A DNA stretch of 32,000 bases from Staphylothermus marinus F1. GTDB lineage: Archaea > Thermoproteota > Thermoprotei_A > Sulfolobales > Desulfurococcaceae. Under the pieces are notes generated by a model, which was given only the letters and a program-made list of their open reading frames with translations, ran no database searches and had not been told where the DNA came from. The stretch covers positions 870,001 to 902,000 of the forward strand of contig NC_009033.1 in NCBI RefSeq assembly GCF_000015945.1, given 5' to 3'. This document shows positions 1 to 31,451 of this stretch, piece by piece. Numbering within the stretch: position 1 is the first letter of the stretch; the number at the start of each line of letters is the position of its first letter. Made by a program: the position numbers and the translations under genes.

Positions 1-2185
1 AATCATAGGTGTAGAACCTGTCGAAAAGAAGTATTTTGGAAGAAAAGTTAGTGCATTAAAAATAATAACGATGATACCGGAATATGTGAGAAAATACAGG
101 GAGAAAATCAAGTCTTTGCCTGAAGTATTAGAAGTTGTTGAGGCAGATATACGTTTTAGTATTAGATACATCATCGATCACGATCTTAGGCCTTGTGGCT
201 GGCATGTAGCAGAAGTGGTGGAAGTACCGAAAAAACCGATATACAGGGTTGATGCAGAATATGAAATAATAGGTGATATAAAGCCTTTAGAGCAAACTCT
301 CCAACCAGATTTAAGAATTATAGCGTTTGATATAGAAGTATATAATAAGTCAGGAACACCTAGACCCCAAACAGATCCTATAATAATTATTGGTATTATG
401 AACAATAATGGTGATATAAAACAGTTCCTAGCAAATAAATACGATGATAAAATTAGTGTTGAAGAGTTCGTGAACTATGTGAAAACATTTGATCCAGACA
501 TTATAGTCGGATATAATACTGACGGATTTGATTGGCCATACCTTATTGAACGATCAAAATATATCGGTGTAAAACTAGATGTAACTAGAAGAGTAGGCGC
601 AACACCTAGAACAAGCACTTACGGACACATCTCTGTGCCTGGAAGACTAAATACAGACCTATATCATTTCGCCGAGGAAATACCGGAAGTTAAAGTTAAA
701 TCTCTCGAGAATGTCGCGGAATACTTGGGAGTTATGAAGAAATCTGAGAGGGTAATTATTGAATACATAGATATCCCCAAGTACTGGGATGATGAAAAAC
801 TTAGACCAAAGCTTCTGCAATACAATATAGATGATGTTAAGTCAACATATGGTTTAGCAGAAAAATTCCTACCATTCGCTATGCAGTTATCAAACATTAC
901 AGGATTACCCCTAGATCAAGTTGGAGCTGCCAGCGTCGGTTTTAGGCTAGAATGGTATCTTATGCGTGAAGCATTCAGGTATGGAGAACTAGTACCTAAC
1001 AGGGTTGAAAGAGCGGCTGAAAGTTATCGTGGCGCAGTTGTGCTTAAACCTGTTAAAGGAGTTCATGAAAACATAGCTGTGCTAGACTTTTCAAGCATGT
1101 ATCCAAACATTATGATCAAATACAATGTTGGTCCAGACACTATTGTTCGCAACGAGAAATGTAATCCAGATAAACATAATATAGCGCCGGAAGTAGGACA
1201 TTGCTTCAGAAAAGAACCTCCTGGATTCTTTAAGAGAGTTCTTGAAACACTTCTAAGATTAAGAAAACAGATCAAGTCTGAAATGAAAAAATATCCTCCC
1301 ACAAGCTATGAGTATAGATTACTCGATGAAAGACAGAAAGCAGTAAAAGTACTAGCTAATGCAACATATGGTTATATGGGATGGATTCATGCTAGATGGT
1401 ATTGCCGAGAATGCGCAGAAGCTGTTACAGCATGGGGTAGACAAACAATAAAGTCAGCAATAGAACTTGCTAGAAAACTAGGTTTAAAAGTAATATACGG
1501 AGATACAGACTCCCTATTTGTAACATACGATAAAGATAAAGTTGAAAAACTCATAGAGCTTATTCAAACAAAGCTTGGATTCGAAATCAAAATTGACAAG
1601 ATCTATAAAAGAGTCTTCTTTACAGAAGCAAAGAAAAGATATGCAGGGCTTCTAGAGGATGGCAGAATAGATATAGTTGGCTTCGAAGCCGTTAGGGGTG
1701 ATTGGGCGGAAATAGCCAAAGAGGTCCAGGAAAAAGTAACAGAGATCCTTTTGAAGGAGAACAGTATTGATAAAGCTATAGAGTACGTGAGACAAGTAAT
1801 TGCTGATCTAAAAGCTGGAAAGATACCATTGGATAAATTAATAATATGGAAAACATTATCGAAGAGAATAGAAGAATACAGTGTGGATGCACCACACGTT
1901 GTGGCCGCGAAAAAACTCATTAAAGCAGGTATTAAGGTCAGTACAAATGATAAGATAGGATATGTAATCCTTAAAGGCGGAGGCAAAATATCTAGTAGGG
2001 CAGAACCATATATCTTCGTAAAGGATCCTAAGCTTATAGATACAGAATACTATGTCGATCACCAAATAGTTCCTGCAGCTCTTAGAATATTAAATTATTT
2101 CGGAGTTACAGAAACGCAGCTGAAGAGAGCAGCTGCTTCTGCTGGTCAAAAAAGCTTGTTTGATTTCTTTGGTGGTAAAAAATAG
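1..2185 (+). CDS. polB: Family B DNA polymerase; the 5' end is cut by the window edge
   Basis: The frame is open from base 2 (IIGVEPVEKKYFGRKVSALKIIT precedes the listed Met at 71). Exo I IAFDIEV, Exo II YNTDGFDWPYL, Exo III YNIDDV. Pol motif A DFSSMYPNIM, motif B KVLANATYGY, motif C YGDTDS. The motifs are contiguous and no intein-like insert is present. Confidence 0.95.
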   Translation, partial: IIGVEPVEKKYFGRKVSALKIITMIPEYVRKYREKIKSLPEVLEVVEADIRFSIRYIIDHDLRPCGWHVAEVVEVPKKPIYRVDAEYEIIGDIKPLEQTLQPDLRIIAFDIEVYNKSGTPRPQTDPIIIIGIMNNNGDIKQFLANKYDDKISVEEFVNYVKTFDPDIIVGYNTDGFDWPYLIERSKYIGVKLDVTRRVGATPRTSTYGHISVPGRLNTDLYHFAEEIPEVKVKSLENVAEYLGVMKKSERVIIEYIDIPKYWDDEKLRPKLLQYNIDDVKSTYGLAEKFLPFAMQLSNITGLPLDQVGAASVGFRLEWYLMREAFRYGELVPNRVERAAESYRGAVVLKPVKGVHENIAVLDFSSMYPNIMIKYNVGPDTIVRNEKCNPDKHNIAPEVGHCFRKEPPGFFKRVLETLLRLRKQIKSEMKKYPPTSYEYRLLDERQKAVKVLANATYGYMGWIHARWYCRECAEAVTAWGRQTIKSAIELARKLGLKVIYGDTDSLFVTYDKDKVEKLIELIQTKLGFEIKIDKIYKRVFFTEAKKRYAGLLEDGRIDIVGFEAVRGDWAEIAKEVQEKVTEILLKENSIDKAIEYVRQVIADLKAGKIPLDKLIIWKTLSKRIEEYSVDAPHVVAAKKLIKAGIKVSTNDKIGYVILKGGGKISSRAEPYIFVKDPKLIDTEYYVDHQIVPAALRILNYFGVTETQLKRAAASAGQKSLFDFFGGKK

Positions 2186-2193
2186 GTTTTATT

Positions 2194-3468
2194 TTACATA
2201 ATATCATTAAAGGTTAGAATCAGTATTTCTGGTGGTTTATAATTTATCCTACCTATTTTTGCCGCTATAATCATCTTTACTTTTTTCTCAGATGCCTTAT
2301 CTATTAATCTCTGCGTTATAATACCATCCATTACTATTGCTTGTACATTGTTTTCATCTAGCTCATCCAGTGTATTTACCAGGTCTCTAACAGGTAATCT
2401 CTTTACAGAATTCCATTCGTTATCATAAAGAATCGCTTCTAACGTTCCATATAGGCTCTTAATATCCTCTCTTATCCTTAAAGGTATAGATACTGCTTCA
2501 ACAACTTCTTCTACAGTCTTAGGGGGTTTAGGAACTGGTTTTTCAACTGGCTTTTTCTCTTCTACTTTGACTTGAGGCTTTATTTGTTCTGCTACTTCTC
2601 TCGCCAGCCTTTCCTGAACCTGTAACAGGTATTGTGCTTCTTTATTTCCTTGCTTGGCAAGTTTTTCTAGGTACTCCCTGGTTGGTACTGCTTTGCTTAG
2701 TGCTTCTCTTATTTCCTTACCTGTTAGTTCTTCTACTTCTCTACCTTCAGGAGCTCTAGCTATAAAGTCTACCTTTATTGTCCTTAATAGTTCCTTTAGG
2801 ATCAGGTCTCCTCCATGGTCCCCATCTAGGAACACTATTACTTTTTTCTTCTTTGCAAGGTTCTTTATTGTATTAGGTACTTTTCTAGCACCACCTAACG
2901 CTATAACGTTTGTGAACCCGTATCTTAGCAGATTGATAACATCTGCCCTTCCCTCAACTATTATTATTGTATCGCTTTCATCGACTCCTGGACCTGCAGG
3001 TAATTGTTCTGGACCATATTTTTGTGGTTCGGGAACTTTGAGTGCTTCCTGCATTTCTTTCAGTATTTCTTTAATATCTGGTGCTTTCTCCTTACTCCAC
3101 TCATGAAGTATTTCTATTGCTCTATCAATTATTTTCTTGATCTTCTCTAGTCTTACATCAATTATATCTACTACTTCTATTCTAGCACTATATGGTCCTA
3201 CCCTATCAACACTCTCTATCATTGCTGCTACAAGTGCTGTTTCTAGTCTGTCTAGGTTGCTGGGTATAATTAATTCGCCAATAGTCTTACCATTATGTAT
3301 CTTAGTCATTACTTGTATTCTTCCTATACGGTTCTTATCCTGCAAAGTTCTTAGATCGAATTGTTCTCCAAATAGTCCCTCAGTTTGCCCAAATATTGCT
3401 CCTATTATGTCGTGTTTCTCAACTACACCGTCAACTTCTACTCTTGCATTTATCAAGTATTTAGCCAT
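2194..3468 (-). CDS. dnaG: Archaeal DnaG primase-like protein (TOPRIM domain)
   Basis: N-terminus MAKYLINARVEVDGVVEKHDIIGAIFGQTEGLFG is typical of archaeal DnaG. TOPRIM residues IIIVEGRADVINLL and FLDGDHGGDLI are present. I start at the ATG at 3468 (MAKYL) rather than the ORF-track Met at 3522. Confidence 0.93.
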   Translation of the reverse strand: MAKYLINARVEVDGVVEKHDIIGAIFGQTEGLFGEQFDLRTLQDKNRIGRIQVMTKIHNGKTIGELIIPSNLDRLETALVAAMIESVDRVGPYSARIEVVDIIDVRLEKIKKIIDRAIEILHEWSKEKAPDIKEILKEMQEALKVPEPQKYGPEQLPAGPGVDESDTIIIVEGRADVINLLRYGFTNVIALGGARKVPNTIKNLAKKKKVIVFLDGDHGGDLILKELLRTIKVDFIARAPEGREVEELTGKEIREALSKAVPTREYLEKLAKQGNKEAQYLLQVQERLAREVAEQIKPQVKVEEKKPVEKPVPKPPKTVEEVVEAVSIPLRIREDIKSLYGTLEAILYDNEWNSVKRLPVRDLVNTLDELDENNVQAIVMDGIITQRLIDKASEKKVKMIIAAKIGRINYKPPEILILTFNDIM

Positions 3469-3844
3469 ATAGATCACCATACTACTACTTGTTATCATAG
3501 TAAATGTGATGTGCGGGAACAACTTTGCTAATTATTAATAAACGTTAATTTGTTGCACACTATATTAAATCTATGCAATTGCCTACGTATTATTTTTTGT
3601 TTATTATGTAATGCAATAATATCTGCGTATAATTTCTTCTCTCAGAGGGGATTATTGGAGCTATGCAAAGACCACAGTTGAGTTCTTCATTTACAATCCT
3701 AAATCAAATCATAAGTATCAATAACATAACATATAGAAAACCACTTAAAGTTTTCAAAAGAACAAAAATACTTAAATCCGTCCTCCTATGTAGGGAAAAC
3801 ATTTTATTCATAGCTGAATAGCTAAATATACAAGTGTTTTAAGA

Positions 3845-4942
3845 TTAACGAGTTATTTTTGTCTTTAACAATGTCTCGAGAATTTCTCTAGCCTCCGGGT
3901 CTGTTCTTAGTTTTTTCCTTATTGGTTCGAGGAGTTTGTTTAGTGCTTCAGCTGTAGCGTTTTTTAGGTCTAGCGGATGTATTTTTCCCTCAACATATAG
4001 TTTCTCTAGTTCATCGTATGATTCAATAGTTATTGGTCCACCATATTTTTCCGGACGATCTATGTATAATTTGAATCCTGGTGTTGCAAATAATAGGTAT
4101 TTATTGATCTCTATTATCGGGTTAAACATTGTTTCGCGTGGAGGACAATATGCTTTTCTGATCTTAGCTCTTATTTCTTCCGGTGGATCATGAACAAATA
4201 TTGCTGTTTCTGGTTTGCTCTTACTCATCTTATGTGTAGCATATACTTCGTCAATCTCTCCAACAATATCCATTCTCCTACCTGGTCCTTTCAAACCAGT
4301 TATTATTGGTGTATGGATAGCAACAGGTTTTTTTCTACCTATTTTCTCAGCAATATCTCTTGCTAACATATGGGCTTTTCTCTGATCAGTTCCTCCCAAC
4401 GCAATATCTAGGTCTAAATAGAATATGTCACTGACTTGCATTAATGGATATATTAGTTTTGAAAAATCAGTTTCTGCTTCTTCACTTTTCCTACCCATTA
4501 TTGTGAGCGCTCTCTTCACTCTAGCTAAACTAACATTTTTAGCTGAACGGACAAGTATTCCCCAATAATCCTTATCCGATACTAGTTCTTCGGCATCAAC
4601 AAACTTTATCTTAGAAACATCTATTCCAAAACCCTCCATTACTTTTCTAACAAGTCTAGCAGCTTTCCGTATAAGATCCATGTCTCCTCCTAGTTTATCA
4701 TTTATGTAAGCATGCCACGTAGCTTCTAATATATAGAAATCAACACCCGCCTCTAACAGGTCTCTAACCTTATTCATCCATACAAGCCATCCAACATGGA
4801 CAAGACCACTGGGTTCGAAACCAATATATCCTCTGGGATGTTCTTTTTCCTCAAAAACTTTCTTTAAATCTTCAAGAGTAATAACTTCAACTGTATTTCT
4901 CGACGCCAACTTAATTTTATCATTTACATCCATCGACGCCAC
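3845..4942 (-). CDS. tyrS: Tyrosyl-tRNA synthetase (archaeal type)
   Basis: Class I signatures GFEPSGLVHVGW (HIGH-like) and KMSKSKPE. There is close colinearity with my recollection of M. jannaschii TyrRS (YIGFEPSG, IYPLMQV, GGTDQRK.HMLARD, PEEIRAKIRKAYCP, HPLDLKNA, LEPIRKKL). Confidence 0.93.
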   Translation of the reverse strand: MASMDVNDKIKLASRNTVEVITLEDLKKVFEEKEHPRGYIGFEPSGLVHVGWLVWMNKVRDLLEAGVDFYILEATWHAYINDKLGGDMDLIRKAARLVRKVMEGFGIDVSKIKFVDAEELVSDKDYWGILVRSAKNVSLARVKRALTIMGRKSEEAETDFSKLIYPLMQVSDIFYLDLDIALGGTDQRKAHMLARDIAEKIGRKKPVAIHTPIITGLKGPGRRMDIVGEIDEVYATHKMSKSKPETAIFVHDPPEEIRAKIRKAYCPPRETMFNPIIEINKYLLFATPGFKLYIDRPEKYGGPITIESYDELEKLYVEGKIHPLDLKNATAEALNKLLEPIRKKLRTDPEAREILETLLKTKITR

Positions 4943-5123
4943 CCATAATGTTGCTTATAAAAACACTCTAACATTCAACATATAGGTGAAGACATATAAA
5001 TATACAGCTTCATAATCTTAGAATCAATATTCGAACACTTATTTACTAGTAATTACTATACCTTATAAAGGTTCAATATATACTTAATCACTTGGAAAAA
5101 ATAGATTTATCAACATTATCTAG

Positions 5124-5149
5124 TTAGAAAACAATCGATTGTTTTCTAA
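5124..5149. repeat. Perfect 26-bp palindrome TTAGAAAACAATC|GATTGTTTTCTAA
   Basis: Read directly from the sequence. The two 13-nt halves are exact reverse complements centred on ATCGAT. It abuts an AAATATAAGAAT TATA-like run (5148-5160) and lies about 30 nt from the GC-rich RNA element. Confidence 0.6.
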
Positions 5150-5190
5150 AATATAAGAATAACTATAGTTTTGTTCTCCGCATAACCCTG

Positions 5191-5306
5191 TTATGTCGGC
5201 CCTTTAGGGAGTGTCCCCCACTACTAACACCCGTAGTCACTGAAGCCATTGATCGGCACATCTCCTACGGGCTCTTAATAGTGGGGGCGGGGCTGCTCCC
5301 CGGGCC
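5191..5306 (-). ncRNA. GC-rich structured small RNA, H/ACA-guide-like (unassigned)
   Basis: This is a sharp GC-rich island in AT-rich intergenic DNA. On the minus strand: P1 CCCCCACUA (5287-5279) pairs with UAGUGGGGG (5223-5215), followed directly by ACA (5214-5212). The internal loop is UUAAGAG (5278-5272) / UGUUAG (5229-5224). P2 CCCGUAG (5271-5265) pairs with CUACGGG (5236-5230). Tandem GA/GA (5264-5263 and 5238-5237) with a 3-nt bulge is K-turn-like. The apical stem is GCC/GGC. Outer stems GGGAG/CUCCC and GGCCC/GGGCC are followed by a second ACA (5196-5194). Strand and ends are inferred. Confidence 0.45.
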
Positions 5307-5354
5307 TATATTAAGTGATGTTGTAAAAAAGGTTTTTATTTAACGCTAACAGTT

Positions 5355-6041
5355 TTATGGATACGTGAATGTTTCGCCTGGTTTTAAAATTACCACTTTT
5401 GTAGGAGTTGTTGATTCTACGAGTTTCTTGAATTCCTCGGGATCAGCTTTTATTGGTGTAAATGTGTTGTAATGCATTGGTATGGCTATTTTTGGCCTTA
5501 TAAGTTGGACTGCTTTAACTGCTTCTTTAACGCCCATAGTATAATGTCCTCCGATTGGTAGCAATGCTATGTCTGGACCATATAGTTCTCCGATCAAGCT
5601 CATCTCCATGAATAATCCTGTGTCACCAGCATGATATATTGTTACATCTTTTCCTCCGACAACAACGCCTGTGGGTGCTCCTCTATTACTGCTATGCCAT
5701 GCAGGTGTTAATACGGCAAAAAGATCTGGTATATTCAGTTTCCCTCCAATATTACCATCAATACTTTGAACACCTTTTTCTCGAGCATATAATGCGATTT
5801 CAAATATTCCAACAATTTTTGCTCCAGTCTCCTTAGCTATCTCAATAGCGTTTCCCAGATGATCACCGTGATCATGTGTTACGAATATATAGTCTATTTT
5901 TCTATTCTTATAATCACTTAGCTTTACAGGACTCAATGGATTCTCTATCCATGGATCAATAAGAATTGTTTTCTCCGCCCCATCAAGGCCTGTCAAGACT
6001 ATTTCGAAGGCTGAATGCCCTAAGTATTTAATGATCGCCAT
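5355..6041 (-). CDS. Metallo-beta-lactamase-fold hydrolase (UPF0173-type metal-dependent hydrolase)
   Basis: MAIIKYLGHSAFEI start, the THDHGDHLG zinc-binding motif, downstream H/D ligands (AWHSS, HAGDTG, PMHYNTF), and a ~228 aa size typical of this family. Confidence 0.85.
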   Translation of the reverse strand: MAIIKYLGHSAFEIVLTGLDGAEKTILIDPWIENPLSPVKLSDYKNRKIDYIFVTHDHGDHLGNAIEIAKETGAKIVGIFEIALYAREKGVQSIDGNIGGKLNIPDLFAVLTPAWHSSNRGAPTGVVVGGKDVTIYHAGDTGLFMEMSLIGELYGPDIALLPIGGHYTMGVKEAVKAVQLIRPKIAIPMHYNTFTPIKADPEEFKKLVESTTPTKVVILKPGETFTYP

Positions 6042-6273
6042 GATAAATTCCTCCCCCCTATAGATTTTTTCTATGATAACATAATGTAAAATGAGGCATT
6101 TATAGCTAAATCATTGATTCATTGAAAAATCCAGAGTTAACTATCCGTTGATCAGGTTGGAGCCTTAGACAATCCTATTTCTCATTCACCAATATATCGA
6201 AAATCTATAAGCTCATATATAGTATTAAATTATACATTAATAAAATCGAACTGGTTGAAGAAACATTGTTGAG

Positions 6274-7191
6274 ATGGGAACAAATATGTCGTTATCAGAA
6301 GAAGCTATATCCAAGCTGTTAAAAGCTGGAGAAATAGCCAAAAAAGTTAGGGAGGAGGCTGCTAGAATAGCTGAGCCTGGCATGAAACTATTTGAACTCG
6401 CAGAATATGTTGAAAGAAGAATAAGAGAACTTGGAGGCGAGCCGGCCTTCCCTGTTAATCTAAGTATTAATGAAGTTGCTGCTCATTATACTCCTGTCGT
6501 GGATGATAATACTATTATACCTGATAATGCTGTTCTCAAAATAGATCTTGGAGTACATATTGATGGATACATAGCTGATACTTCTGTCACCGTTGCCTTT
6601 AACCCTGTATATGAGAGCCTTCTCGAAGCTAGTAGAATGGCGCTTGAAAAAGCGCTTGAAATAGTTGGGCCAGGAATAAGGGTTAATACGATTGGGAAAG
6701 TTATTGAGGAAACAATTACTTCTTATGGATACAAACCTATTAGAAACCTTTCTGGACACAGTATTGATCGCTACCTTATACATGCTGGTAAAAGCATACC
6801 TAACTATAATGATTTATTTACACGTTGGAAACTAGTAGAGGGAGTATATGCTATAGAGCCCTTTGCAACAAACGGTGTTGGGCTTGTGAGGGAAGGACCA
6901 ATAGCTACAATATATTCTCTTACACCACGCAGAAGAACCCATTTAACACTTTATGAGAAGAAATTATTTGATAAAATATGGAGTGAGCGTAGAACACTGC
7001 CATTCTGTGAGAGATGGTATGTTGGATTATTCAATAGTGTTGAAGGTTTAAGGAATACTTTAAGGATGATGCAGAAACATAGAGTAATATATGCTTATCC
7101 AGTTCTTATAGAAAGAGGCGGAGGCTTGGTTTCACAGTTTGAACATACATTCATTATACATGGAAAAGACGTTATTGTTACAACTAAATAA
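6274..7191 (+). CDS. map: Methionine aminopeptidase, type 2
   Basis: AAHYTP, DLGVHIDGYIAD, SGHSIDRY, YAIEPFAT and FEHTFI metal-ligand and pita-bread motifs. An alternative start at Met5 (6286) is possible. Confidence 0.93.
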   Translation: MGTNMSLSEEAISKLLKAGEIAKKVREEAARIAEPGMKLFELAEYVERRIRELGGEPAFPVNLSINEVAAHYTPVVDDNTIIPDNAVLKIDLGVHIDGYIADTSVTVAFNPVYESLLEASRMALEKALEIVGPGIRVNTIGKVIEETITSYGYKPIRNLSGHSIDRYLIHAGKSIPNYNDLFTRWKLVEGVYAIEPFATNGVGLVREGPIATIYSLTPRRRTHLTLYEKKLFDKIWSERRTLPFCERWYVGLFNSVEGLRNTLRMMQKHRVIYAYPVLIERGGGLVSQFEHTFIIHGKDVIVTTK

Positions 7192-7284
7192 ATATTATAG
7201 CCAAATATATATGGGTCTATATAATGTCATGTTTTTTTGATATACTGCAAAAACATATAGGTTGTGTAGGAGGAGAATAATAGG

Positions 7285-8382
7285 TTGCCGGATACTGACT
7301 GGGGAACACTTATAACACAGTTGATCTGGTTGTTGTTCTTTATAATGATATTTACAGGTGCTAATCAGAAGATCCAGATGAAGCTTTGGAGTATTGATAT
7401 AAGAAATAAGCTTTCAATTATTAAGAGATATATTGATGAAGATCATGCACGTATAGAGAATATTTTAAAGAATCTAGGTGTTCAAACCCCTTCAGTACTG
7501 ATTAAGCGTGCAAATAATTTTTTCACAATAGACCCTGTAACTATAGAGCCAACAGACATTATTAAGCGTATGGAGCACTTGATACGAACTAGTGATAAGA
7601 GTTTTAGAAAACTAGTCTCCCTATACTTGCCTAACCTAGATAAACATGAGAGAAGCCTTGTTGAAACAAGTATTTCCATACTTAGTACTTTAAACCTAAT
7701 ATATAAGGTGATCAAACACTACTTGATCAGTAGTGAGAAAGAAAATAACTGGGTTCTACTAATGCAGCTTGAACTAATTATGCCCCAGATAATGAAGCTT
7801 GTTGAAACATATCATGAAGCTCTAGACCCGTTTACCACGGGCAAGCCTATAGGTGATGGAGCAGGCCCATTAATAGCCCATAGAATAATCGAAGATGGAA
7901 GAGTTGTTTCGAAAAAAGTCGTCGAGGATACAAGTATTACTGAGGTTTGGCTAGATGATAGAAGAATATTTGTTATAAAAGCTGAGGGGCCGGGAAGCAA
8001 TGTGGGTAGACCTGGATACATTTTAGCAAAACTTGTCGATGAGTTGAGAGGCAGTGTTGATTTAATAATTACTATTGATGCAGCTCTTAAGCTTGAAAGT
8101 GAGGAGAGAGGTGAAATTGCTGAAGGGGTTGGTGCAGCTATAGGTGATCCAGGACCCGAGAAAATAGCTATTGAAAGAGCCGCAACAAAATATGGAATCC
8201 CATTAAGAGCCTTAGTTGTTAAGATGGATCTCGGAGACGCCATATACACTATGAAGAAGGATATATATGAAGCATGTGAGAGAGCATATGAGTATGTTAG
8301 AAAACTTGTTAAGGAATTGACAACACCTAAATCAACAATAATAATTGCAGGAATAGGAAACACCATGGGTGTGCCTGGATGA
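7285..8382 (+). CDS. Conserved hypothetical protein with an N-terminal TM helix (possibly the archaeal DUF1512 family)
   Basis: Long ORF with a TTG start preceded by GGAGGAG (7269-7275). It has a hydrophobic N-terminus LITQLIWLLFFIMIFTG and a Gly-rich C-terminal domain (GDGAGPLIAHR, AEGPGSNVGRPG, GVGAAIGDPGPEK). The family assignment is from memory only. Confidence 0.7.
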   Translation: MPDTDWGTLITQLIWLLFFIMIFTGANQKIQMKLWSIDIRNKLSIIKRYIDEDHARIENILKNLGVQTPSVLIKRANNFFTIDPVTIEPTDIIKRMEHLIRTSDKSFRKLVSLYLPNLDKHERSLVETSISILSTLNLIYKVIKHYLISSEKENNWVLLMQLELIMPQIMKLVETYHEALDPFTTGKPIGDGAGPLIAHRIIEDGRVVSKKVVEDTSITEVWLDDRRIFVIKAEGPGSNVGRPGYILAKLVDELRGSVDLIITIDAALKLESEERGEIAEGVGAAIGDPGPEKIAIERAATKYGIPLRALVVKMDLGDAIYTMKKDIYEACERAYEYVRKLVKELTTPKSTIIIAGIGNTMGVPG

Positions 8383-8651
8383 ACATGGATATAAATACAA
8401 TACTATACACCACATTAATTGGAGCAATAATTATGGCAATATATCTATATATGGAAGCAAGGAGGAAACCAAAGAAACCAGAATATAAAACAATAGAAAT
8501 ACTAGAATGCACCAAATGTGGCTATAAAATAGAAAAAGAATATGAACCAGGCGACTTCATCGGAATGATCAAAGGAAAATGTCCTAAATGCAACTCACCA
8601 ATGAAGATAAAAGCAATATACGCAGTAGAAAAGACACCAAGTAAAACTTAA
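8379..8651 (+). CDS. Small membrane-anchored C4 zinc-ribbon protein
   Basis: ATGA start/stop overlap with the upstream gene. N-terminal TM helix ILYTTLIGAIIMAIYLYM, then CTKCGY...17 aa...CPKCNS. Confidence 0.7.
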   Translation: MNMDINTILYTTLIGAIIMAIYLYMEARRKPKKPEYKTIEILECTKCGYKIEKEYEPGDFIGMIKGKCPKCNSPMKIKAIYAVEKTPSKT

Positions 8652-8680
8652 AAACACCCATATAATTAAATTATGAAACA

Positions 8681-8812
8681 GCGGCCCGACCCGGCCATAG
8701 TGGCCGGGCAACACCCGGTCTCATATCGAACCCGGAAGTTAAGCCGGCCACGTTGGGGTGGGCCGTGAGGTCCGAGAGGCCTCGCAGCCGCCCCAAGCTG
8801 GGATCGGGCCGC
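8681..8812 (+). rRNA. 5S ribosomal RNA
   Basis: GC-rich island. Helix I is GCGGCCCGA...UCGGGCCGC. Conserved 5S strings are present: CCGGUCUCAUAUCGAACCCGGAAGUUAAGCC and CCAAGCUGGGAU. No 16S or 23S rRNA gene lies within this window. Confidence 0.95.
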
Positions 8813-8833
8813 TACTACTTCTTAGCCCTTGCG

Positions 8834-8838
8834 TTTTT
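8834..8838 (+). terminator. T5 run downstream of the 5S rRNA
   Basis: GCGTTTTTG lies about 22 nt after the 5S 3' end, preceded by a pyrimidine-rich CTACTTCTT. Archaeal terminators are oligo-T tracts. Confidence 0.35.
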
Positions 8839-9047
8839 GACTACAAACATTGTTTCTATGATCTAAATAATCTAAAATACGTGAAGTAAATCAATATATT
8901 TAGATCTTTAGAATATTTCGAATTATATATTCTTCTTTCCTTTTATTTTTCCTTATATAAGGTAAAAACAAATTTCCACCCCGAAAATCTTTATTTTTCA
9001 TACCCTTATTCTCTTCTTTAAACATTAGTTTTGAAAATAGGGTAGAA

Positions 9048-9350
9048 TTAGAAATTGTGAATAGTGTTAAGTTGTCTATGTGTCTTATGAACAATAATCC
9101 ATAAAATGAATACGAATATTATTATGGTTAATATGGATAGTGCTATTAAAACATAGATTATAGATAAGCTAAGATTTCCTGCGGCTATACAGATAGGGAT
9201 GAAGAATAGAACTATACATATAACTCCGCCTCCCTCAACATTGCTAGGTGTAGGTGTTAGGGTTGTTGTTGAGAAAGCTAAGAGTAGGAAACCTATTATT
9301 ATGAGGAGCACACCTATCATAATATATTTCTCGTTAAACACTACTCTCAC
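9048..9350 (-). CDS. Small multi-TM membrane protein, paralogue of the next gene (DUF131/TIGR00304-like)
   Basis: Hydrophobic helices flank NVEGGGVICIVLFFIPICIAAG. This is colinear with the neighbour's NVEAGGVVIIGPIPIVFG. Confidence 0.65.
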   Translation of the reverse strand: MRVVFNEKYIMIGVLLIIIGFLLLAFSTTTLTPTPSNVEGGGVICIVLFFIPICIAAGNLSLSIIYVLIALSILTIIIFVFILWIIVHKTHRQLNTIHNF

Positions 9351-9365
9351 TCTCCTTTCCTGTTT

Positions 9366-9632
9366 TTACTTATTAATTGGTAAGTAGAGTGGGAGTAAAT
9401 AGTATATTAATAGTATTGTTACAAGTATAATTGCCAAAACCAATAAGATAACCGTTATTCTATGTGATGTGCCAAAAACTATTGGTATAGGGCCAATAAT
9501 TACTACTCCACCAGCTTCTACATTCTTCTTAGAGCTTTCTTCCCCACCACCCATTAGTCCGAACAATAAGATTATGAAGCCGATAAGTATTAGTAGCATA
9601 CCTGTAAACCAGATAAGGCTTTGATCAATCAT
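9366..9632 (-). CDS. Small multi-TM membrane protein (DUF131/TIGR00304-like)
   Basis: TM1 FTGMLLILIGFIILLFG, the conserved-looking GGVVIIGPIPIVFG, and a C-terminal TM VILLVLAIILVTILLIYYLL. The family name is from memory. Confidence 0.7.
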   Translation of the reverse strand: MIDQSLIWFTGMLLILIGFIILLFGLMGGGEESSKKNVEAGGVVIIGPIPIVFGTSHRITVILLVLAIILVTILLIYYLLPLYLPINK

Positions 9633-9721
9633 TTTTGCTTCACCGTTTCCCTAGCATAGTAATATAACTTATGTGTGGAATAAATTTAATTATAGAAAAA
9701 CAAATAATTATGTGAACAACC

Positions 9722-10030
9722 ATGAAGACCCCGTACTCAACTATATCAGTAAAAATAATCAATATAGATAATAAAAAACTAGTTGGGATAGAAATAGAAT
9801 TACCTAATGCACCACCACTAATAATTCTTCGCGGAGACAAAGGATTCGTTATGTGTGGATACCTAGACATAAAAGTTGCCGACAAACTCGGACTAGTAGC
9901 TGCACGGGTAACTGGAGTTAGAAGCATTAGTGAAATGTTGGAGAAGGAAATAGTTGAGGTAACAAGTAAAGCATCTGAACACGGAATACTTCCTGGAATG
10001 AAGGTTAAGGATATTATCAGTAAATTATAA
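9722..10030 (+). CDS. DUF1805 (YunC-like) domain protein
   Basis: LPNAPPLIILRGDKGFVMCGYLDIKVADKLGLVAARVTGVRSISEMLE aligns well with my recollection of B. subtilis YunC (LPKTTLLAV..KGYIMCGALDV...AGRAVGVRTIDQLL). The 170-aa antisense ORF at 9640-10152 is rejected. Confidence 0.85.
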   Translation: MKTPYSTISVKIINIDNKKLVGIEIELPNAPPLIILRGDKGFVMCGYLDIKVADKLGLVAARVTGVRSISEMLEKEIVEVTSKASEHGILPGMKVKDIISKL

Positions 10031-10067
10031 CAGTATGAATACATAAATAGTTTAGGGGGCAAAATAC

Positions 10068-10328
10068 ATGGTTTCCAAGGCAACAGGTTTAACATTATTA
10101 TTATCTGCAATACTATTAGTGATAATGTATATTTATGGATTAATAATTGCACCAGACATTATCATTTGGAATATTAAATTAAGCGATCTACTTATAAGAC
10201 TCACTATATTATTTATCGTGTTTACAATATCATTCTTTCTCGGCTACCTGGGATACTCTATTCTAACAACACCAACTCCTAGACCTATAGAAGAAATAGT
10301 TAGGGAATACATGGAAACAACTAAGTAG
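10068..10328 (+). CDS. Small membrane protein with at least two TM helices, unknown function
   Basis: A GGGGG SD-like run lies upstream. Hydrophobic segments LTLLLSAILLVIMYIYGLII and LTILFIVFTISFFLGYLGYSIL. It ends 14 nt before pyk. Confidence 0.6.
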   Translation: MVSKATGLTLLLSAILLVIMYIYGLIIAPDIIIWNIKLSDLLIRLTILFIVFTISFFLGYLGYSILTTPTPRPIEEIVREYMETTK

Positions 10329-10342
10329 ATGGTGTTTGGTTT

Positions 10343-11752
10343 ATGAGAAAAGTTAAGATAATAACTACGATAGGCCCGAGCAGTGGTAAATACGAGGTAT
10401 TGTCAAGACTTATACAGGAAGGGGTAGATGGTTTTAGAATTAATTTCAGCCATGGAAATCCCCATGAATGGGATGAATGGGTTAAAATGGTTAGAGAACT
10501 TGCAGAGAAATATGAACGAGAAATATCTATAATGGGTGATTTACCAGGCCCCCAAGTAAGGATAGGGGAATTACCAGTACAGGAGATTAAGGCTAAACAA
10601 ACCGTTAAGCTTGTATATAAAGATAAGGTTGACGAGGAAAACACTATACCCGTACCTAATAGGAAGGTTTTCGAAATATTAGAGCTTGGAGATATTGTAT
10701 TGATTGATGATGGAAAAATAATTCTTAGAATAATAGACATTGGTGGAAACGAAGCTGAAGCAATAGTGTTGAATGACGCAGTATTGTATCCGCATAAAAC
10801 TCTTGTAGTCTTCGGTAAGGAGATAGACTTGCCTGTTTTAAGCGAGAAAGACGTTGATCTAGTGAACTATAGTGTATCGAGAAAACTAACATATTTAGCC
10901 ATTAGCTTTGTCCGTAGATCAAGTGATATAGTTATTGTTAGAGATATTGTTTCAAGATTGAATGGAGAAATAGGATTAATAGCTAAAATAGAGACTAGAT
11001 CAGCTGTTAAGAACTTAAAGGATATAATGAGTGTATCAGATGCTATCATAATAGCCCGTGGAGATCTAGGTATGCATTACAGCTTAGAAGAACTACCAGG
11101 TCTACAAAGAAAAATAGCTCGCGAAGCAATAATGATTGGAAAACCCAGCATCGTTGCTACACAACTATTAGAATCAATGGTTAACTATCCAAGGCCTAGT
11201 AGGAGCGAAGTAGTTGACGTAGTTAATGCCGTATATGACCTAGTAGATGCCCTACTATTAACTGATGAGACAGCCATAGGTAAATACCCTGTTGAATCAG
11301 TTAAATGGTTGAAGAGAATAATAAGTTCGGCTGAATCAAGCATTGTAGAGAGGAGGATCGAAGATATACGTGAAAAACTAGAACTAAGAGCGTTGAGAGA
11401 AAAATATGCTCTAGGACTAACACTTTTAGCAGAGAAAATAAATGCAAAAATACTAATCTATACAAAAACCTCCACAATACCTCCAGCAATTTCTCGTTTC
11501 AGACCACAGATCCCAGTCTATGTAGGAACTAGTGATAAATTAATAGCGGAAAAACTAACAATATACTACGGCTTAAAACCATTTTATCTAAAACAACTCA
11601 GAAACAAAGATATAGACTACGATCAAGGAGTGAAAACATTATATGAACACTTAAAGAATAAAGAAGAAATAACATATGGTGAAATAATAGCAGAAGCGTA
11701 TGGTAGAAGAGAAACACAAATTCACGAAATAAAAATTAGGCAAGTCATATGA
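10343..11752 (+). CDS. pyk: Pyruvate kinase
   Basis: KIITTIGPSS, DGFRINFSHG, the MGDLPGPQVR stretch, IAKIETRSAV and IIARGDLGM motifs. Confidence 0.93.
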   Translation: MRKVKIITTIGPSSGKYEVLSRLIQEGVDGFRINFSHGNPHEWDEWVKMVRELAEKYEREISIMGDLPGPQVRIGELPVQEIKAKQTVKLVYKDKVDEENTIPVPNRKVFEILELGDIVLIDDGKIILRIIDIGGNEAEAIVLNDAVLYPHKTLVVFGKEIDLPVLSEKDVDLVNYSVSRKLTYLAISFVRRSSDIVIVRDIVSRLNGEIGLIAKIETRSAVKNLKDIMSVSDAIIIARGDLGMHYSLEELPGLQRKIAREAIMIGKPSIVATQLLESMVNYPRPSRSEVVDVVNAVYDLVDALLLTDETAIGKYPVESVKWLKRIISSAESSIVERRIEDIREKLELRALREKYALGLTLLAEKINAKILIYTKTSTIPPAISRFRPQIPVYVGTSDKLIAEKLTIYYGLKPFYLKQLRNKDIDYDQGVKTLYEHLKNKEEITYGEIIAEAYGRRETQIHEIKIRQVI

Positions 11753-11810
11753 TTTTAATTATTTTCAGAATTAAACGCGAAAAAATATATACACACTATT
11801 ATGTTCTTTT

Positions 11811-11830
11811 AAATAGTGATAAATAGTGAT
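11811..11830 (+). repeat. Perfect tandem 10-mer AAATAGTGAT x2 at the csx1-like promoter and start
   Basis: Read directly from the sequence. It overlaps the TTTTAAATA TATA-like box (11807-11815), which is centred about 24 nt upstream of the ATG at 11835. Confidence 0.6.
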
Positions 11831-11834
11831 TATT

Positions 11835-13343
11835 ATGTCTAGTTCCGAATTTAAAGTTCTTCTTATCGCTCCATGGGGTTATCCTCCCAGCTGGAGGGAT
11901 GCAAAATATTGTCTGAAAAGTGTTAAAGTAGGGAACATATCTCTTAAAGGTTGTTGTATTGGATGCAGTAGTTCGATAGCAGTCTACTTAATACTTAAAT
12001 CGCATAAGAAGATCAACAATACACGTTTATTGGTTATTGGCACAGATACAGTAATAGAACCAATTAATGAGGATCTACGAAGTAATGTTAAAGAATGGTT
12101 CAGTACAGTTGGAGAGAAATTATTGAACACTACTAGTTGTGAAGGAGTTATAAAGAATAATGAATGGATCAATGACTTGCATTTTGGCATTGTACCGGGT
12201 ATAGGGGAATATTACGGATACTATTTCAAAGGAGATATATTAAAGATTTTTCTTGAATCATATCGATACATTGCATTGAACATAAAAGATTTTAATCCAA
12301 GCCTCCTAATTCTCGATACAACTCATGGATTAAACATATTAACAATAGCCGTTCTCTACGCCACAGTTGCAGCATCAATTGTATATAACAAACGAATACT
12401 TACTATTAATTCCGAACCCTATCCCTCAGGTAAAGGAACAAAGTATTGTATAGAAGTTAAAAAGAAATCCAATAAGAGCATTACTAAAGAGAATGAGATG
12501 CCGAAGCTAAACATACATGATATATCACATTTACAACAAATAATAGATTTCTTAAGAGCACTAAATTCACTAAGATTTCTCAACGAGAAACAATTAAATA
12601 GACTGCCTAGAAGAAAAATGCAAAACAAATATGTTGAATTAATAGATAAAATAATATGTATGGTTGAAGCATTAAGAACAGGTCTAATAGGCTTACTATT
12701 TGGTAACAGTAAATTATCTAGCGATAAAGGAATTCCGTTTACAATAAATGAAATCTATAAATTTATGGAAAATATTCATAAGTTAAACTATGATATGGAA
12801 TGGTTTAAACCATCACTTGAAAACAATATAGTTAAGTATGAGCCAACTATAGATGAAAACATAATCAAGTATGCTCCTATACTAGACTTTCTTAGAAACT
12901 ATATTGAAGAATATAGTGATTGTTTAAAAACAATAAGCTTAAAAGAATTCGCAAAATGTCTAGAAAATAAATTAGAGAGGAGTGGTTATTGGGATAGAAA
13001 ACAAATTATTATAAATGAAACATCAAACCTTACGGAAATAGCATGTGAAATCAAAAATGATATGGGTATAGAAACAATAGATTCTAATCTCCTACTAGAA
13101 TACTGGTCTAAAAAGAAAGGTTTTGGAAATAGTCAAGGAGAAAAAGATAAACTAGTTAATCCAAGGAACTTTGCAGCACATGCTGCTTTAAACTTTAATA
13201 TATTAAAGAGTATAAAGGTTCAAAATATTAATGGCAAGTGCGAAATTGTAGAAATAATATATGATCAAGATAAATTAGCAAAAATACTTGAAAAAATAGG
13301 TAGAAAGAGCAGACTTTATCACTGCATAGAACACTATACATAG
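11835..13343 (+). CDS. csx1: Csx1-family CRISPR-associated CARF/HEPN protein (DxTHG family); predicted cyclic-oligoadenylate-responsive RNase
   Basis: KVLLIAPWGYPPSWRDAKY, IVPGIGEYYGYYFKGD, the DxTHG motif LILDTTHGLN, and the C-terminal HEPN R-x4-H motif NPRNFAAHAAL. All are colinear with my recollection of P. furiosus Csx1 (KILVVSWG..W...KY, IAPGIGEF, FDSTHGLN, SPRNVLAHAGL). The start is taken at ATG 11835; the ORF track uses GTG 11826. Confidence 0.85.
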   Translation: MSSSEFKVLLIAPWGYPPSWRDAKYCLKSVKVGNISLKGCCIGCSSSIAVYLILKSHKKINNTRLLVIGTDTVIEPINEDLRSNVKEWFSTVGEKLLNTTSCEGVIKNNEWINDLHFGIVPGIGEYYGYYFKGDILKIFLESYRYIALNIKDFNPSLLILDTTHGLNILTIAVLYATVAASIVYNKRILTINSEPYPSGKGTKYCIEVKKKSNKSITKENEMPKLNIHDISHLQQIIDFLRALNSLRFLNEKQLNRLPRRKMQNKYVELIDKIICMVEALRTGLIGLLFGNSKLSSDKGIPFTINEIYKFMENIHKLNYDMEWFKPSLENNIVKYEPTIDENIIKYAPILDFLRNYIEEYSDCLKTISLKEFAKCLENKLERSGYWDRKQIIINETSNLTEIACEIKNDMGIETIDSNLLLEYWSKKKGFGNSQGEKDKLVNPRNFAAHAALNFNILKSIKVQNINGKCEIVEIIYDQDKLAKILEKIGRKSRLYHCIEHYT

Positions 13344-13400
13344 TATCTCGTGAATTACTTATTGAAACAAACCCTACTGGAAGGGATAGGTTTGATTATG

Positions 13401-13502
13401 AGCCGCCGGCGGGATTTGAACCCGCGACCACCGGCTTTCCCGACTCCGGTAATCAAGTACCCGATACGAGGCCGGCGCTCTACCGAGCTGAGCTACGGCG
13501 GC
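13401..13502 (-). tRNA. tRNA-Thr (anticodon CGU) with a 28-nt intron at the canonical 37/38 position
   Basis: Minus-strand read: GCCGCCG-UA-GCUC-AGCUCGGUA-GAGC-G-CCGGC-CU CGU A-[intron 13464-13437, UCGGGUACUUGAUUACCGGAGUCGGGAA]-A-GCCGG-UGGUC-GCGGG-UUCAAAU-CCCGC-CGGCGGC-U. All stems are Watson-Crick, with U33, A37 and discriminator U. Confidence 0.92.
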
Positions 13503-18106: not shown

Positions 18107-18199
18107 ATGATCTGGTTAGAGGAAGAATGGTGGGAGGAAGAAGAGGAAGAAGAATGGGAAGAAGAGGAAGAGTGGTGGGAAGAGGAAGAAGAATGGTAA
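18107..18199 (+). CDS. Candidate micro-ORF encoding a 30-aa Trp/Glu-only peptide, MIWLEEEWWEEEEEEEWEEEEEWWEEEEEW
   Basis: My own translation; the ORF is below the ORF-track size cut-off. ATG is at 18107 and TAA at 18197-18199. Twenty-six consecutive codons are only GAA, GAG or TGG, all in one frame. AGGTGA (18094-18099) lies 7 nt upstream. The TATA-like ATATAAAA (18079-18086) is centred about 24 nt upstream of the ATG. Confidence 0.4.
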   Translation: MIWLEEEWWEEEEEEEWEEEEEWWEEEEEW

Positions 18200-26023: not shown

Positions 26024-26057
26024 TATAATTATTTATTGAATATAATTATTTATTGAA
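26024..26057. repeat. Perfect tandem 17-mer TATAATTATTTATTGAA x2 spanning the pan stop codon
   Basis: Read directly from the sequence (26024-26040 and 26041-26057). The second copy contains the last codon and the stop codon of pan on the minus strand. Confidence 0.6.
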
Positions 26058-30039: not shown

Positions 30040-31011
30040 TTGAAAAACACTTATAAATTCATTGATCTATTTTGTGGTGCAGGAGGTTTTGCTGAAGGAT
30101 TTATCTTAACAAATAGATTTAGATCAGTTCTTGGAATAGATAATTTTAGGCCAGCTGCACAGACATATAAAATTAATTTTCCCGATTCAATTGTTATCAT
30201 GGAGGATATTAAGCGGATAAGAAACGATGACCTAATAGAAATTATTGACCCTGAAGAAATAGATGTTGTCATAGGTAGTCCTCCTTGCGAACCCTTTACT
30301 GGAGCCAATCCCAAGCGTGAGAAAAACCCCATAGATAGACTATATAAGGATCCAGCTGGACAACTAACCCTCCACTATATTAGGATAGTAGGATTTCTTA
30401 AGCCAAGAGTATTTGTGATGGAAAATGTTCCAGCAATAATGGATGATGGATTAGAATATGTTCTGAGAAGAGAATTTGAAAAAATAGGTTATAGAATTTA
30501 TTTTAACATATTGAGAGCAGAAGACTATGGAACACCTAGTCATAGACTAAGAGTTTTCATTTCTAACATACCTATCAAACCTAAGAAACAAAAACATAGA
30601 ATCACTGTAGGAGAAGCTTTCAAGGGTCTCCCCAAACCCGGTACAGGTTATCCACCTAATCATGACCCCTTTCCCCTACCATTAAGAAAACTTAAGAGAA
30701 TCTCTAGGCTCAAATGGGGTCAGGCAATGATATATTATGAAGGAGCACGTAGGAGATTACCCAATCTTATACGTTTAAATCCAAACAAGATAGCGCCCAC
30801 GGTTCTTGGAAGTTCTCGATTTATCCATCCCTATGAAAACAGATTCATAACTGTTAGAGAACAAGCTCGCCTAATGGGTTTCCCAGATACGTTCATATTT
30901 GTTGGGGGACGAGATGAACAATATAATTTAGTTGGAGAAGCAGTTCCAGTTCCCTTAGCAAAAGCTATAGCTGAGTATATTGTTGAAAAACTTGATAGAG
31001 GTGATATATAA
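30040..31011 (+). CDS. C5-cytosine methyltransferase-fold enzyme (orphan; substrate uncertain)
   Basis: Motif I FIDLFCGAGGF, motif IV GSPPCEPFT, motif VI MENVPAI, motif VIII YGTPSHRLRVFI, motif IX FITVREQARLMGFPDTF, motif X GEAVPVPLAKAIA. The TTG start lies 2 nt after the tfe stop codon. Confidence 0.88.
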   Translation: MKNTYKFIDLFCGAGGFAEGFILTNRFRSVLGIDNFRPAAQTYKINFPDSIVIMEDIKRIRNDDLIEIIDPEEIDVVIGSPPCEPFTGANPKREKNPIDRLYKDPAGQLTLHYIRIVGFLKPRVFVMENVPAIMDDGLEYVLRREFEKIGYRIYFNILRAEDYGTPSHRLRVFISNIPIKPKKQKHRITVGEAFKGLPKPGTGYPPNHDPFPLPLRKLKRISRLKWGQAMIYYEGARRRLPNLIRLNPNKIAPTVLGSSRFIHPYENRFITVREQARLMGFPDTFIFVGGRDEQYNLVGEAVPVPLAKAIAEYIVEKLDRGDI

Positions 31012-31013
31012 AC

Positions 31014-31451
31014 ATGAGATTCGTAGCATTATATGCGCCATCAAGTGTGCAGAGAATAATAGACTTCGTTAAAACTGTTTTTCTATTCCATGATTACCAA
31101 CCCATAATAATAAAACCGGTTGGTGCGGCTGCTCAAATAGGTGTTCCTGAAGCATATAAGATAGCGTATAGACAGAAGAAATCCTTGATAGTACTTCCAG
31201 AAATTAATGATATAATAGAGGTTTTAGGAATTAGTGAGGTATACTACCTGGATGAAAGAGGAGAAGAAATAGAAATTAATAATCTGAAAAAAAGCAGTGT
31301 AGCACTAGTTATAAATGGTGGAGACCAAGAACCAAGCAAAAAAGAATTATTAAATACCCGTATTGTCAGAGTAAAAGGTGTTGATTCCTCATTGCCTCCT
31401 GTAGGCTTAACTGCTATTATCTTGTATCTTCTCAGTAGAGATACCATGTAG
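31014..31451 (+). CDS. Hypothetical 145-aa protein, possibly SPOUT/alpha-beta-knot-like
   Basis: It starts 2 nt after the methyltransferase stop codon. The C-terminal VALVINGGDQEPSKKELLNTRIVRVKGVDSSLPPVGLTAIILYLL resembles the SPOUT pattern (lvfG.E..G......d..v.IP....SLN...A.ai.ly), but with non-canonical residues. Weak, by eye only. Confidence 0.35.
   Translation: MRFVALYAPSSVQRIIDFVKTVFLFHDYQPIIIKPVGAAAQIGVPEAYKIAYRQKKSLIVLPEINDIIEVLGISEVYYLDERGEEIEINNLKKSSVALVINGGDQEPSKKELLNTRIVRVKGVDSSLPPVGLTAIILYLLSRDTM

Follow-up and report, generated by a model that had tools for sequence, protein, structure and literature searches.

A candidate in-trans Csx1 effector encoded beside tRNA-Thr, apart from the type III-A CRISPR system, in Staphylothermus marinus F1

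A Csx1-type gene between pyk and tRNA-Thr

The window analysed here is a 32-kb stretch of the Staphylothermus marinus F1 genome (NC_009033.1, positions 870,001–902,000; coordinates below are counted from its first nucleotide), and the gene of interest within it is csx1, whose product is assigned to the CARF-HEPN ribonucleases by profile, structure and family matches. The coding sequence occupies 11835–13343 on the plus strand. The open reading frame (ORF) is intact to 13343 whether it is read from the ATG at 11835, which gives 502 residues and is the choice of the gene callers, or from the GTG at 11826, which gives 505. The original prediction, which described a stand-alone Csx1-type effector at this position, had the end of the ORF right, but the start that it gave, 11807, precedes an in-frame TAA (11820–11822) and takes in promoter DNA. 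The motifs that it quoted are all present: LDTTHGLN (D161-T-T-H164-G165), RNFAAH (R444..H449) and CLKS...GCCIGC (C26, C40, C41 and C44).

The flanking genes are also those originally named. On the left is the pyruvate kinase gene, pyk (10343–11752, plus strand; Pfam PK and PK_C), and on the right is tRNA-Thr(CGU) (13401–13502, minus strand), which has an intron of ∼30 nt and whose 3' end abuts the insertion that bears csx1. ARAGORN missed this tRNA gene because of the intron, so Rfam was used instead (RF00005, 61.8 bits, anticodon CGU); an orthologous tRNA is present in the two relatives compared below, L028 and L030. A hairpin 3' of csx1 scored no better than shuffled sequence (z = -0.9). All six of the short-read assemblies that we used break at the same base, 13429, within the 3' half of tRNA-Thr, probably because this segment is common to other tRNA genes.

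Profile searches place the protein in the Csx1 family at scores far above chance, as had been proposed for a CARF/HEPN protein of this type. The Pfam model PF22230 (Csx1_CARF) is matched in its entirety (1–163/163, E = 5.3e-30) and locates the CARF domain at residues 12–198 (11868–12428, plus strand). Two CARF+HEPN profiles, PDLC01035 and PDLC01961, both match the protein over its full length, the latter (PADLOC CARF9--CARF_HEPN) with 1031 bits over positions 1–497/497, and the PADLOC profile 'Csx1, CAS-III associated signaling' matches with E = 1.8e-82. The protein is therefore not a new architecture: it belongs to an already catalogued Csx1 subfamily, CARF9, whose profile was apparently drawn from a published census of CARF proteins, and only its genomic placement, together with a decayed paralogue described below, is particular to the S. 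marinus genome. The family is small: of 1.84 billion cluster representatives, 408 match at E ≤ 1e-3 and 48 at E ≤ 1e-30.

An AlphaFold2 model built with 11 homologues has a mean predicted local distance difference test score (pLDDT) of 82.9 and a predicted TM-score (pTM) of 0.86. In Foldseek searches, it gives full-length matches to ToCsm6 of Thermococcus onnurineus (6O6S, E = 2.5e-12), Pfu Csx1 of Pyrococcus furiosus (4EOG, 2e-9) and the Sulfolobus solfataricus protein Sso1389 (2I71, 2.6e-9). ToCsm6, a self-limiting CARF-HEPN RNase that is activated by cyclic tetra-adenylate (cA4), is the best structural match at 14–17% identity. Pfu Csx1 (PF1127, of the MJ1666/TIGR01897 family) has the same CARF-linker-HEPN architecture, and a profile of the window protein's family matches 4EOG with E = 2.3e-15; the match consists of three colinear segments, namely WG..W..Y at the N-terminus, the DxTHG/NSEPYP core and RNFxAH. 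Written out for the two proteins, the shared motifs are VL(V/I)..WG.P..W...Y, LD(L/T)THG(I/L)N, NSEPYP and RNF(I/A)AH. The two differ in that their identity in the structural alignment is only ∼14% and in that the window subfamily adds four cysteines, C41, C44, C102 and C205. Pfu Csx1 is activated by cA4, and its gene lies within its own cmr locus, in contrast to the remote gene in the window.

We examined residue conservation across 53 family members with 18–58% identity. G124, D161, H164, G165, N167 and H449 are invariant, and W14 (48/53), G15, W20, Y25, N192, S193, P195, R444 and A448 are nearly so. The DxTHG motif (D161 T162 T163 H164 G165; 12315–12329, plus strand) is thus anchored by D161, H164, G165 and the downstream N167, each found in 53/53 sequences. 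The HEPN catalytic motif, R444-N-F-A-A-H449 (13164–13181, plus strand), aligns with RNFIAH of Pfu Csx1, its arginine being present in 52 of the 53 sequences and its histidine in all of them. Alignment with the mutant chains of ToCsm6 equates H164 with H132 (H132A chain 6o6t, which reads STAGLN, with Asn at +3) and H449 with H381 (H381A chain 6o6z, which reads RNVLAAAG). N167 likewise aligns with ToCsm6 N135, and the window protein has a Trp after the first β-strand, as ToCsm6 does at W14. In SisCsx1, the cA4 contacts are Y14, Y19, S51, T154, H155, G156 and N158 (PMC6754442). The counterparts of these contacts in the window protein are W14, W20, S45–S47, T163, H164, G165 and N167, with the difference that position 14 is Trp here and Tyr in SisCsx1. 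By analogy with S51 of SisCsx1, the Ser-rich loop S45–S47 should be a cA4 contact (PMC6754442).

Directly before this loop is a C41-x-x-C44 motif (11955–11966, plus strand) that is invariant in the 11 closest homologues. An N-terminal Cys cluster had been pointed out previously; C41 and C44 are indeed conserved, whereas C26 and C40 are not. The conserved pair co-varies with two further cysteines, C102 and C205: all four are present in 19 of the 53 family members, none is present in 10, and 9 have only C41 and C102. C44 and C205 nearly always occur together. This pattern would fit either a structural metal site or two disulfides located beside S45–S47.

A lineage-specific insertion and its history

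To the left and right of csx1, the gene order is shared with related genomes. We compared the pyk/tRNA-Thr junction with the corresponding loci of L028 and L030, the nearest relatives with data; S. hellenicus, whose pyk was not among the homologues returned, was left out of this comparison. In L028 (pyk 79% identical), the gene order is the same, with the pyk stop codon 4 bp from the 3' end of tRNA-Thr, followed by the genes for TIM, FBPase and ABCE1, and csx1 is absent. L030 (pyk 68% identical) is colinear with the window over 21 kb and also has no csx1; its junction contains 1.37 kb of unrelated, decayed DNA. This L030 segment (11414–12790) consists of minus-strand ORFs of 49–80 residues and appears to be a decayed gene with a hydrophobic N-terminus. 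Homology to the window stops exactly at the pyk stop codon and restarts at the 3' end of the tRNA. Because the two nearest relatives are colinear without csx1, the gene is a lineage-specific insertion of ∼1.65 kb (11753–13400) at a variable site, consisting of csx1 alone with its own upstream and downstream DNA.

The accessory status originally suggested for the gene is therefore borne out, although by synteny and not by composition. The A/T richness and the abundance of Lys, Asn and Ile noted by eye are real, but they make csx1 only a mild outlier: its GC content is 0.304, compared with 0.359 ± 0.031 for the 29 other genes (z = -1.8; z = -1.5 for GC at third codon positions), and Lys, Asn and Ile together account for 30% of residues, compared with 23% (z = +1.7). 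The synonymous codon choice is host-like, and we rejected composition as evidence of transfer. The same comparison disposes of the idea that csx1 is an ancient core gene, syntenic in all relatives. Host-like codon usage and fixation in all of the S. marinus assemblies seen would agree with such a history, but the otherwise colinear loci of L028 and L030 lack the gene and refute it, and the homologues in S. hellenicus and in L006, a metagenome-assembled genome, are found in unrelated contexts. We regard the probability of this alternative as negligible.

A second question about origin is whether csx1 is the last remnant of an eroded integrative element, a virus or plasmid that targeted tRNA-Thr. 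The position of the insertion against the tRNA 3' end is suggestive in this respect, as is the variability of the junction: nothing is inserted there in L028, L030 has other, decayed DNA and S. marinus has csx1. The sequence TATGA is found at both edges of the insertion; however, a 5-bp repeat easily arises by chance in AT-rich DNA, and a search around the insertion for att-type direct repeats and terminal inverted repeats gave nothing beyond short, chance-level matches (TATGA itself and a 13-nt inverted repeat at 11719/13344). Moreover, we found no integrase among the scanned ORFs and called genes of the window, no duplicated tRNA segment at the insertion and no relatives in the IMG/VR, phage and plasmid collections, and the insert is only 1.65 kb long. 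An origin of this kind, which would concern only how the gene arrived, is thus rather unlikely.

The region just upstream of the start codon contains a perfect tandem duplication, TAAATAGTGA x2 (11810–11829, plus strand), identified with TRF and a repeat search and located 5 bp ahead of the ATG. This repeat had been presented as a feature of the promoter. It is real and perfect, but it is polymorphic among strains: the window and L033, which is of the identical strain, carry the unit twice, and the S. marinus assemblies L032, L004 and L005 (∼99% identity to the window) carry it once. The tandem TAAATAGTGA therefore looks like a recent strain-level duplication of the slippage type and not a fixed promoter feature. 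The second copy places the ATG 10 bp further from the upstream A/T-rich boxes, and the GTGAT in each unit may be Shine-Dalgarno-like. The window has similar perfect tandem repeats at 10464 and 26024, so that this one is not statistically remarkable.

Within S. marinus, csx1 is fixed. An intact 502-residue ORF is present in 6/6 assemblies, derived from five sequencing runs, with 99.0–100% identity to the window. The divergent alleles differ from the window at 4 non-synonymous and 4–5 synonymous codons, which corresponds to a ratio of non-synonymous to synonymous rates (dN/dS) of roughly 0.3 and indicates that the ORF is under constraint and that the gene is maintained. These data bear on the possibility that csx1 is a non-functional orphan heading for decay, like the cas10-adjacent pseudogene described in the next section. 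Such a fate could be read from the remoteness of the gene from its own system, from a nucleotide divergence among strains that is ∼3-fold that of pyk (0.55% versus 0.18%), from the polymorphic 10-bp indel just upstream of the start codon and from the low model confidence around the HEPN loop. It is difficult to reconcile with an ORF that is intact in all six assemblies, with the retention of every family-invariant residue, with codon usage that fits the host and with synonymous changes that equal or outnumber non-synonymous ones despite ∼3-fold fewer synonymous sites. We consider decay very unlikely.

A type III-A (Csm) system elsewhere in the genome

We found no cas genes in the 32-kb window, either in Pfam scans of ORFs of at least 110 residues downstream of csx1 or among the precomputed Pfam matches on called genes upstream, and no CRISPR array using TRF and a repeat search, in agreement with the original report that csx1 stands alone in this neighborhood. 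The small ORFs at 8.9–9.7 kb have no Pfam match on record. Genomic context beyond the window was read from short-read assemblies. The gene for cas10 is neither on the 41.9-kb contig that ends at csx1 nor within 18.6 kb on the other side.

A search for a type III locus, of the kind recommended earlier, did locate a module outside the window. Using the cas10 of the locus that contains the csx1 homologue P0004, we identified an S. marinus F1 Csm1/Cas10 (P0141, 940 residues) in which both the HD motif (LLHDIGK) and the cyclase motif (SGGDD) are intact, and whose gene has csm2, csm3, csm4 and csm5 as neighbors. This Csm1 is encoded on a 1,570,485-bp contig, and a contig of equal length encodes a protein 100% identical to the pyruvate kinase of the window. 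Sequencing run SRR4046664 yields a contig that is 100.000% identical to window positions 343–13429 and a separate 88-kb contig that contains cas10; csx1 and cas10 are therefore present in the same strain.

Directly downstream of this cas10 is a frameshifted and truncated Csx1-like CARF pseudogene (L034 12873–13555 and 13832–14256; also in L035). The Csx1-like pieces, spread over ∼1 kb of DNA downstream of cas10, lie in three frames: MSSNESPSRVLLVAAWGNPYT..W..V.Y, a middle piece, and ..VILDTTHGINY... When joined, they match the complete Csx1_CARF model with E = 1.3e-15, and no HEPN part is left. A CRISPR array with the repeat CTTTCAATTCTTTCTATGTTGTTAC and a spacing of 64–68 bp begins ∼280 bp past the pseudogene. 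A second strain shows this pseudogene in the same condition; its contig differs from the first by three mismatches and one gap across 8,964 bp (99.93% identity).

The pseudogene occupies the position at which P0004 sits, intact, in its own genome. In the DxTHG region it is 41% identical to P0004, compared with 30% to the window protein, and so the remote csx1 was not copied from it recently. Because the cas10-adjacent CARF gene has decayed, the examined parts of the genome yielded no intact Csx1-type gene other than the remote csx1.

The settings of the relatives vary with their distance from the window protein. Homologues with 27–48% identity sit in type III or type I-A cas loci: P0004 (48%) is encoded directly downstream of a RAMP-RAMP-RAMP-cas10 array of genes and adjoins a Cas_APE2256 gene, P0006 (46%) is beside a Cas_APE2256 gene and a type I-A cassette, and P0010 (27%) is beside cmr genes. 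In contrast, the three closest family copies (56–100% identity), those of the window, S. hellenicus and L006, are all away from cas10. The S. hellenicus copy (56%) is located between housekeeping genes, next to a Cas_APE2256 gene and a gene for a 429-residue protein, and the L006 copy (58%) lies among nucleotidyltransferase, PaREP1, NurA, HerA-like and PIN genes. The S. hellenicus Cas_APE2256 product matches Sso1393 (3QYF) with E = 8e-15, as well as 7PQ2, 7PQ6 and 7PQA ('CRISPR-associated protein, APE2256 family'), and we identify these Cas_APE2256 neighbors as Crn1-type ring nucleases.

Two features of these loci are recorded here in their own right. The 429-residue S. hellenicus protein (L001 8594–9883), encoded between the Crn1-type gene and the csx1 homologue, has no Pfam or PADLOC match and may be a type III ancillary protein not described so far. 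In L024 (14686–17262), from the metagenome-assembled genome with a csx1 homologue after cas10, the type III module and the Crn1-type gene are adjoined by cas6 and by type I-D-like csc1 and csc2 genes.

The original prediction left two alternatives for csx1, a remote effector that answers to a type III locus elsewhere or a sensing module used outside CRISPR. In the second of these, an RNase that senses cyclic oligoadenylates or other nucleotides would have been co-opted for a signal not made by Cas10 or for host RNA turnover. Several observations lean in this direction: the surrounding DNA is free of cas genes for at least 18.6 kb in one direction and ∼41 kb in the other, csx1 has its own upstream region, and none of the three closest family members is near cas10. 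Yet the same genome holds a Csm module whose GGDD cyclase is intact, and cas loci house the more distant family members. The S. hellenicus copy adjoins a Crn1-type cA4 ring nuclease, all of the cA4-contact residues are conserved, and the dead CARF gene in the cas10 locus leaves a vacancy that csx1 fills. Co-option outside CRISPR is, in our estimation, highly improbable, and we favor the first alternative, a remote effector wired to the distant type III locus, given the same-genome Csm module with intact HD and GGDD motifs and the homologues within cas loci.

The other identified genes of the window are housekeeping genes, except for two adjacent ones near the 3' end, for a DNA methylase and a nuclease. 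They encode PolB, DnaG, an aminoacyl-tRNA synthetase, a metallo-β-lactamase-fold protein, methionine aminopeptidase, DUF1512 and DUF1805 proteins, 5S rRNA and the pyruvate kinase already described; TIM, FBP aldolase/phosphatase, ABCE1, S17e, the thermosome, a HerA-like ATPase, RpoG and Lsm; archaeosine TGT, PAC2, PAN, HflX, Trm56 and TFE; and the C5 DNA methylase, the DUF2122 nuclease and an aldo-keto reductase. The methylase, a C5 cytosine DNA methyltransferase (PADLOC MTase_II, E = 1e-72), is followed directly by the DUF2122 nuclease, a RecB-family protein, and the two (30040–31451, plus strand) may form a restriction-modification pair. The 5S rRNA gene (8687–8806, plus strand) is solitary, with syntenic copies in L028 and L030 and no 16S or 23S rRNA gene found in the window. 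The tandem duplication at 26024 (26024–26057) is a perfect repeat of the 17-mer TATAATTATTTATTGAA at the 3' end of the PAN proteasome-ATPase gene. Finally, a Glu/Trp micro-ORF of 27–30 residues, MIWLEEEWWEEEEEEEWEEEEEWWEEEEEW, is present at 18107–18199 on the plus strand and at the same syntenic position in L028 (7537–7626) and L030 (17538–17621), that is, in three lineages with pyk identity down to 68%. It lies between a Zn-ribbon gene and an uncharacterised gene of 162–163 codons and overlies a GAA/GAG tandem repeat.

A proposed role for Csx1 in trans

The interpretation that best fits these results is that csx1 encodes a functional Csx1-family CARF-HEPN ribonuclease of the CARF9 clade, related to Pfu Csx1 and MJ1666, that would act in trans as an effector of the distant S. 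marinus type III-A (Csm) system. We put the probability of this reading, which is drawn by analogy with characterised relatives, at about 80%. The ∼1.65-kb insertion that brought the gene to the pyk/tRNA-Thr junction would postdate the divergence of S. marinus from the closest relatives with sequenced genomes, and it is this insertion beside a tRNA gene that accounts for the distance between csx1 and the CRISPR locus.

The signalling steps that we propose are taken from characterised relatives (PMC8284326, PMC6754442). Binding of target RNA by the Csm complex would switch on the GGDD cyclase of Cas10, which would make a cyclic oligoadenylate, most likely cA4. By the same analogy, cA4 is probably the activator of the window protein, as it is of ToCsm6 and of the crenarchaeal Csx1 proteins of Sulfolobus. 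It would bind in the CARF pocket of the Csx1 dimer, formed by W14, W20, S45–S47, T163-H164-G165 and N167, and binding would allosterically activate the HEPN site (R444/H449), leading to non-specific RNA degradation. A further step is more tentative than the others: the CARF domain may itself break down cA4 and thereby restrain its own activity. We raise it because W14, H164 and N167 resemble the ring-nuclease triad of ToCsm6, which cleaves cA4 via W14, H132 and N135; the Trp and His of this triad occur together in only ∼5% of Csx1 proteins (PMC6754442). Sulfolobus Csx1, by comparison, does not cleave cA4 and depends on Crn1 (PMC6754442).

Several points weigh against this interpretation or against parts of it. 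The N-terminal alignment to ToCsm6 did not establish that W14 of the window protein is equivalent to W14 of ToCsm6, and a Crn1-type ring nuclease gene still lies next to csx1 in relatives that share the W/H/N residues, a difference from ToCsm6 that weakens the suggestion of self-limiting activity. The specificity for cA4 is itself carried over from relatives. In addition, the score against NCBIfam TIGR01897 (cas_MJ1666) is 100.4 bits, below the 110-bit cutoff, even though the match spans profile positions 1–400/417; judged by this score, the protein represents a divergent subfamily and, strictly speaking, is no MJ1666 equivalog. The AlphaFold2 pLDDT falls below 50 at residues 431–448, just ahead of and into the HEPN motif. 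The distance between csx1 and cas10 is only bounded, and the genome may contain further CARF effectors, cas10 genes or ring nucleases.

A more elaborate scenario can be imagined in which the Csx1 of the Staphylothermus clade has been uncoupled from the cas operon as a self-limiting cA4 sensor (W14/H164/N167) with a redox- or metal-dependent C41/C44/C102/C205 site, its expression being tuned by the slippage-prone 10-bp repeat and its in-locus paralogue having been displaced. We regard this combination as decidedly unlikely.

Ancillary effectors that are encoded apart from the type III operon are a known situation, and no paper among those searched pairs Staphylothermus with Csx1. What we describe is a known kind of system, in a published genome, with incremental local details, namely the insertion between pyk and tRNA-Thr, the decay of the cas10-adjacent paralogue, the Cys quartet and the W/H/N configuration of the CARF domain. 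The locus provides a worked example of a type III ancillary effector that has been split from its cas10 operon, where the in-locus counterpart has decayed and signalling presumably continues in trans. It also indicates that 'orphan' CARF genes are to be judged against the whole genome and not against a 30-kb neighborhood. The S. marinus protein is a reasonable candidate for asking whether a W/H/N CARF domain predicts self-limiting cA4 cleavage in crenarchaeal Csx1 proteins, and what role the Cys quartet plays.

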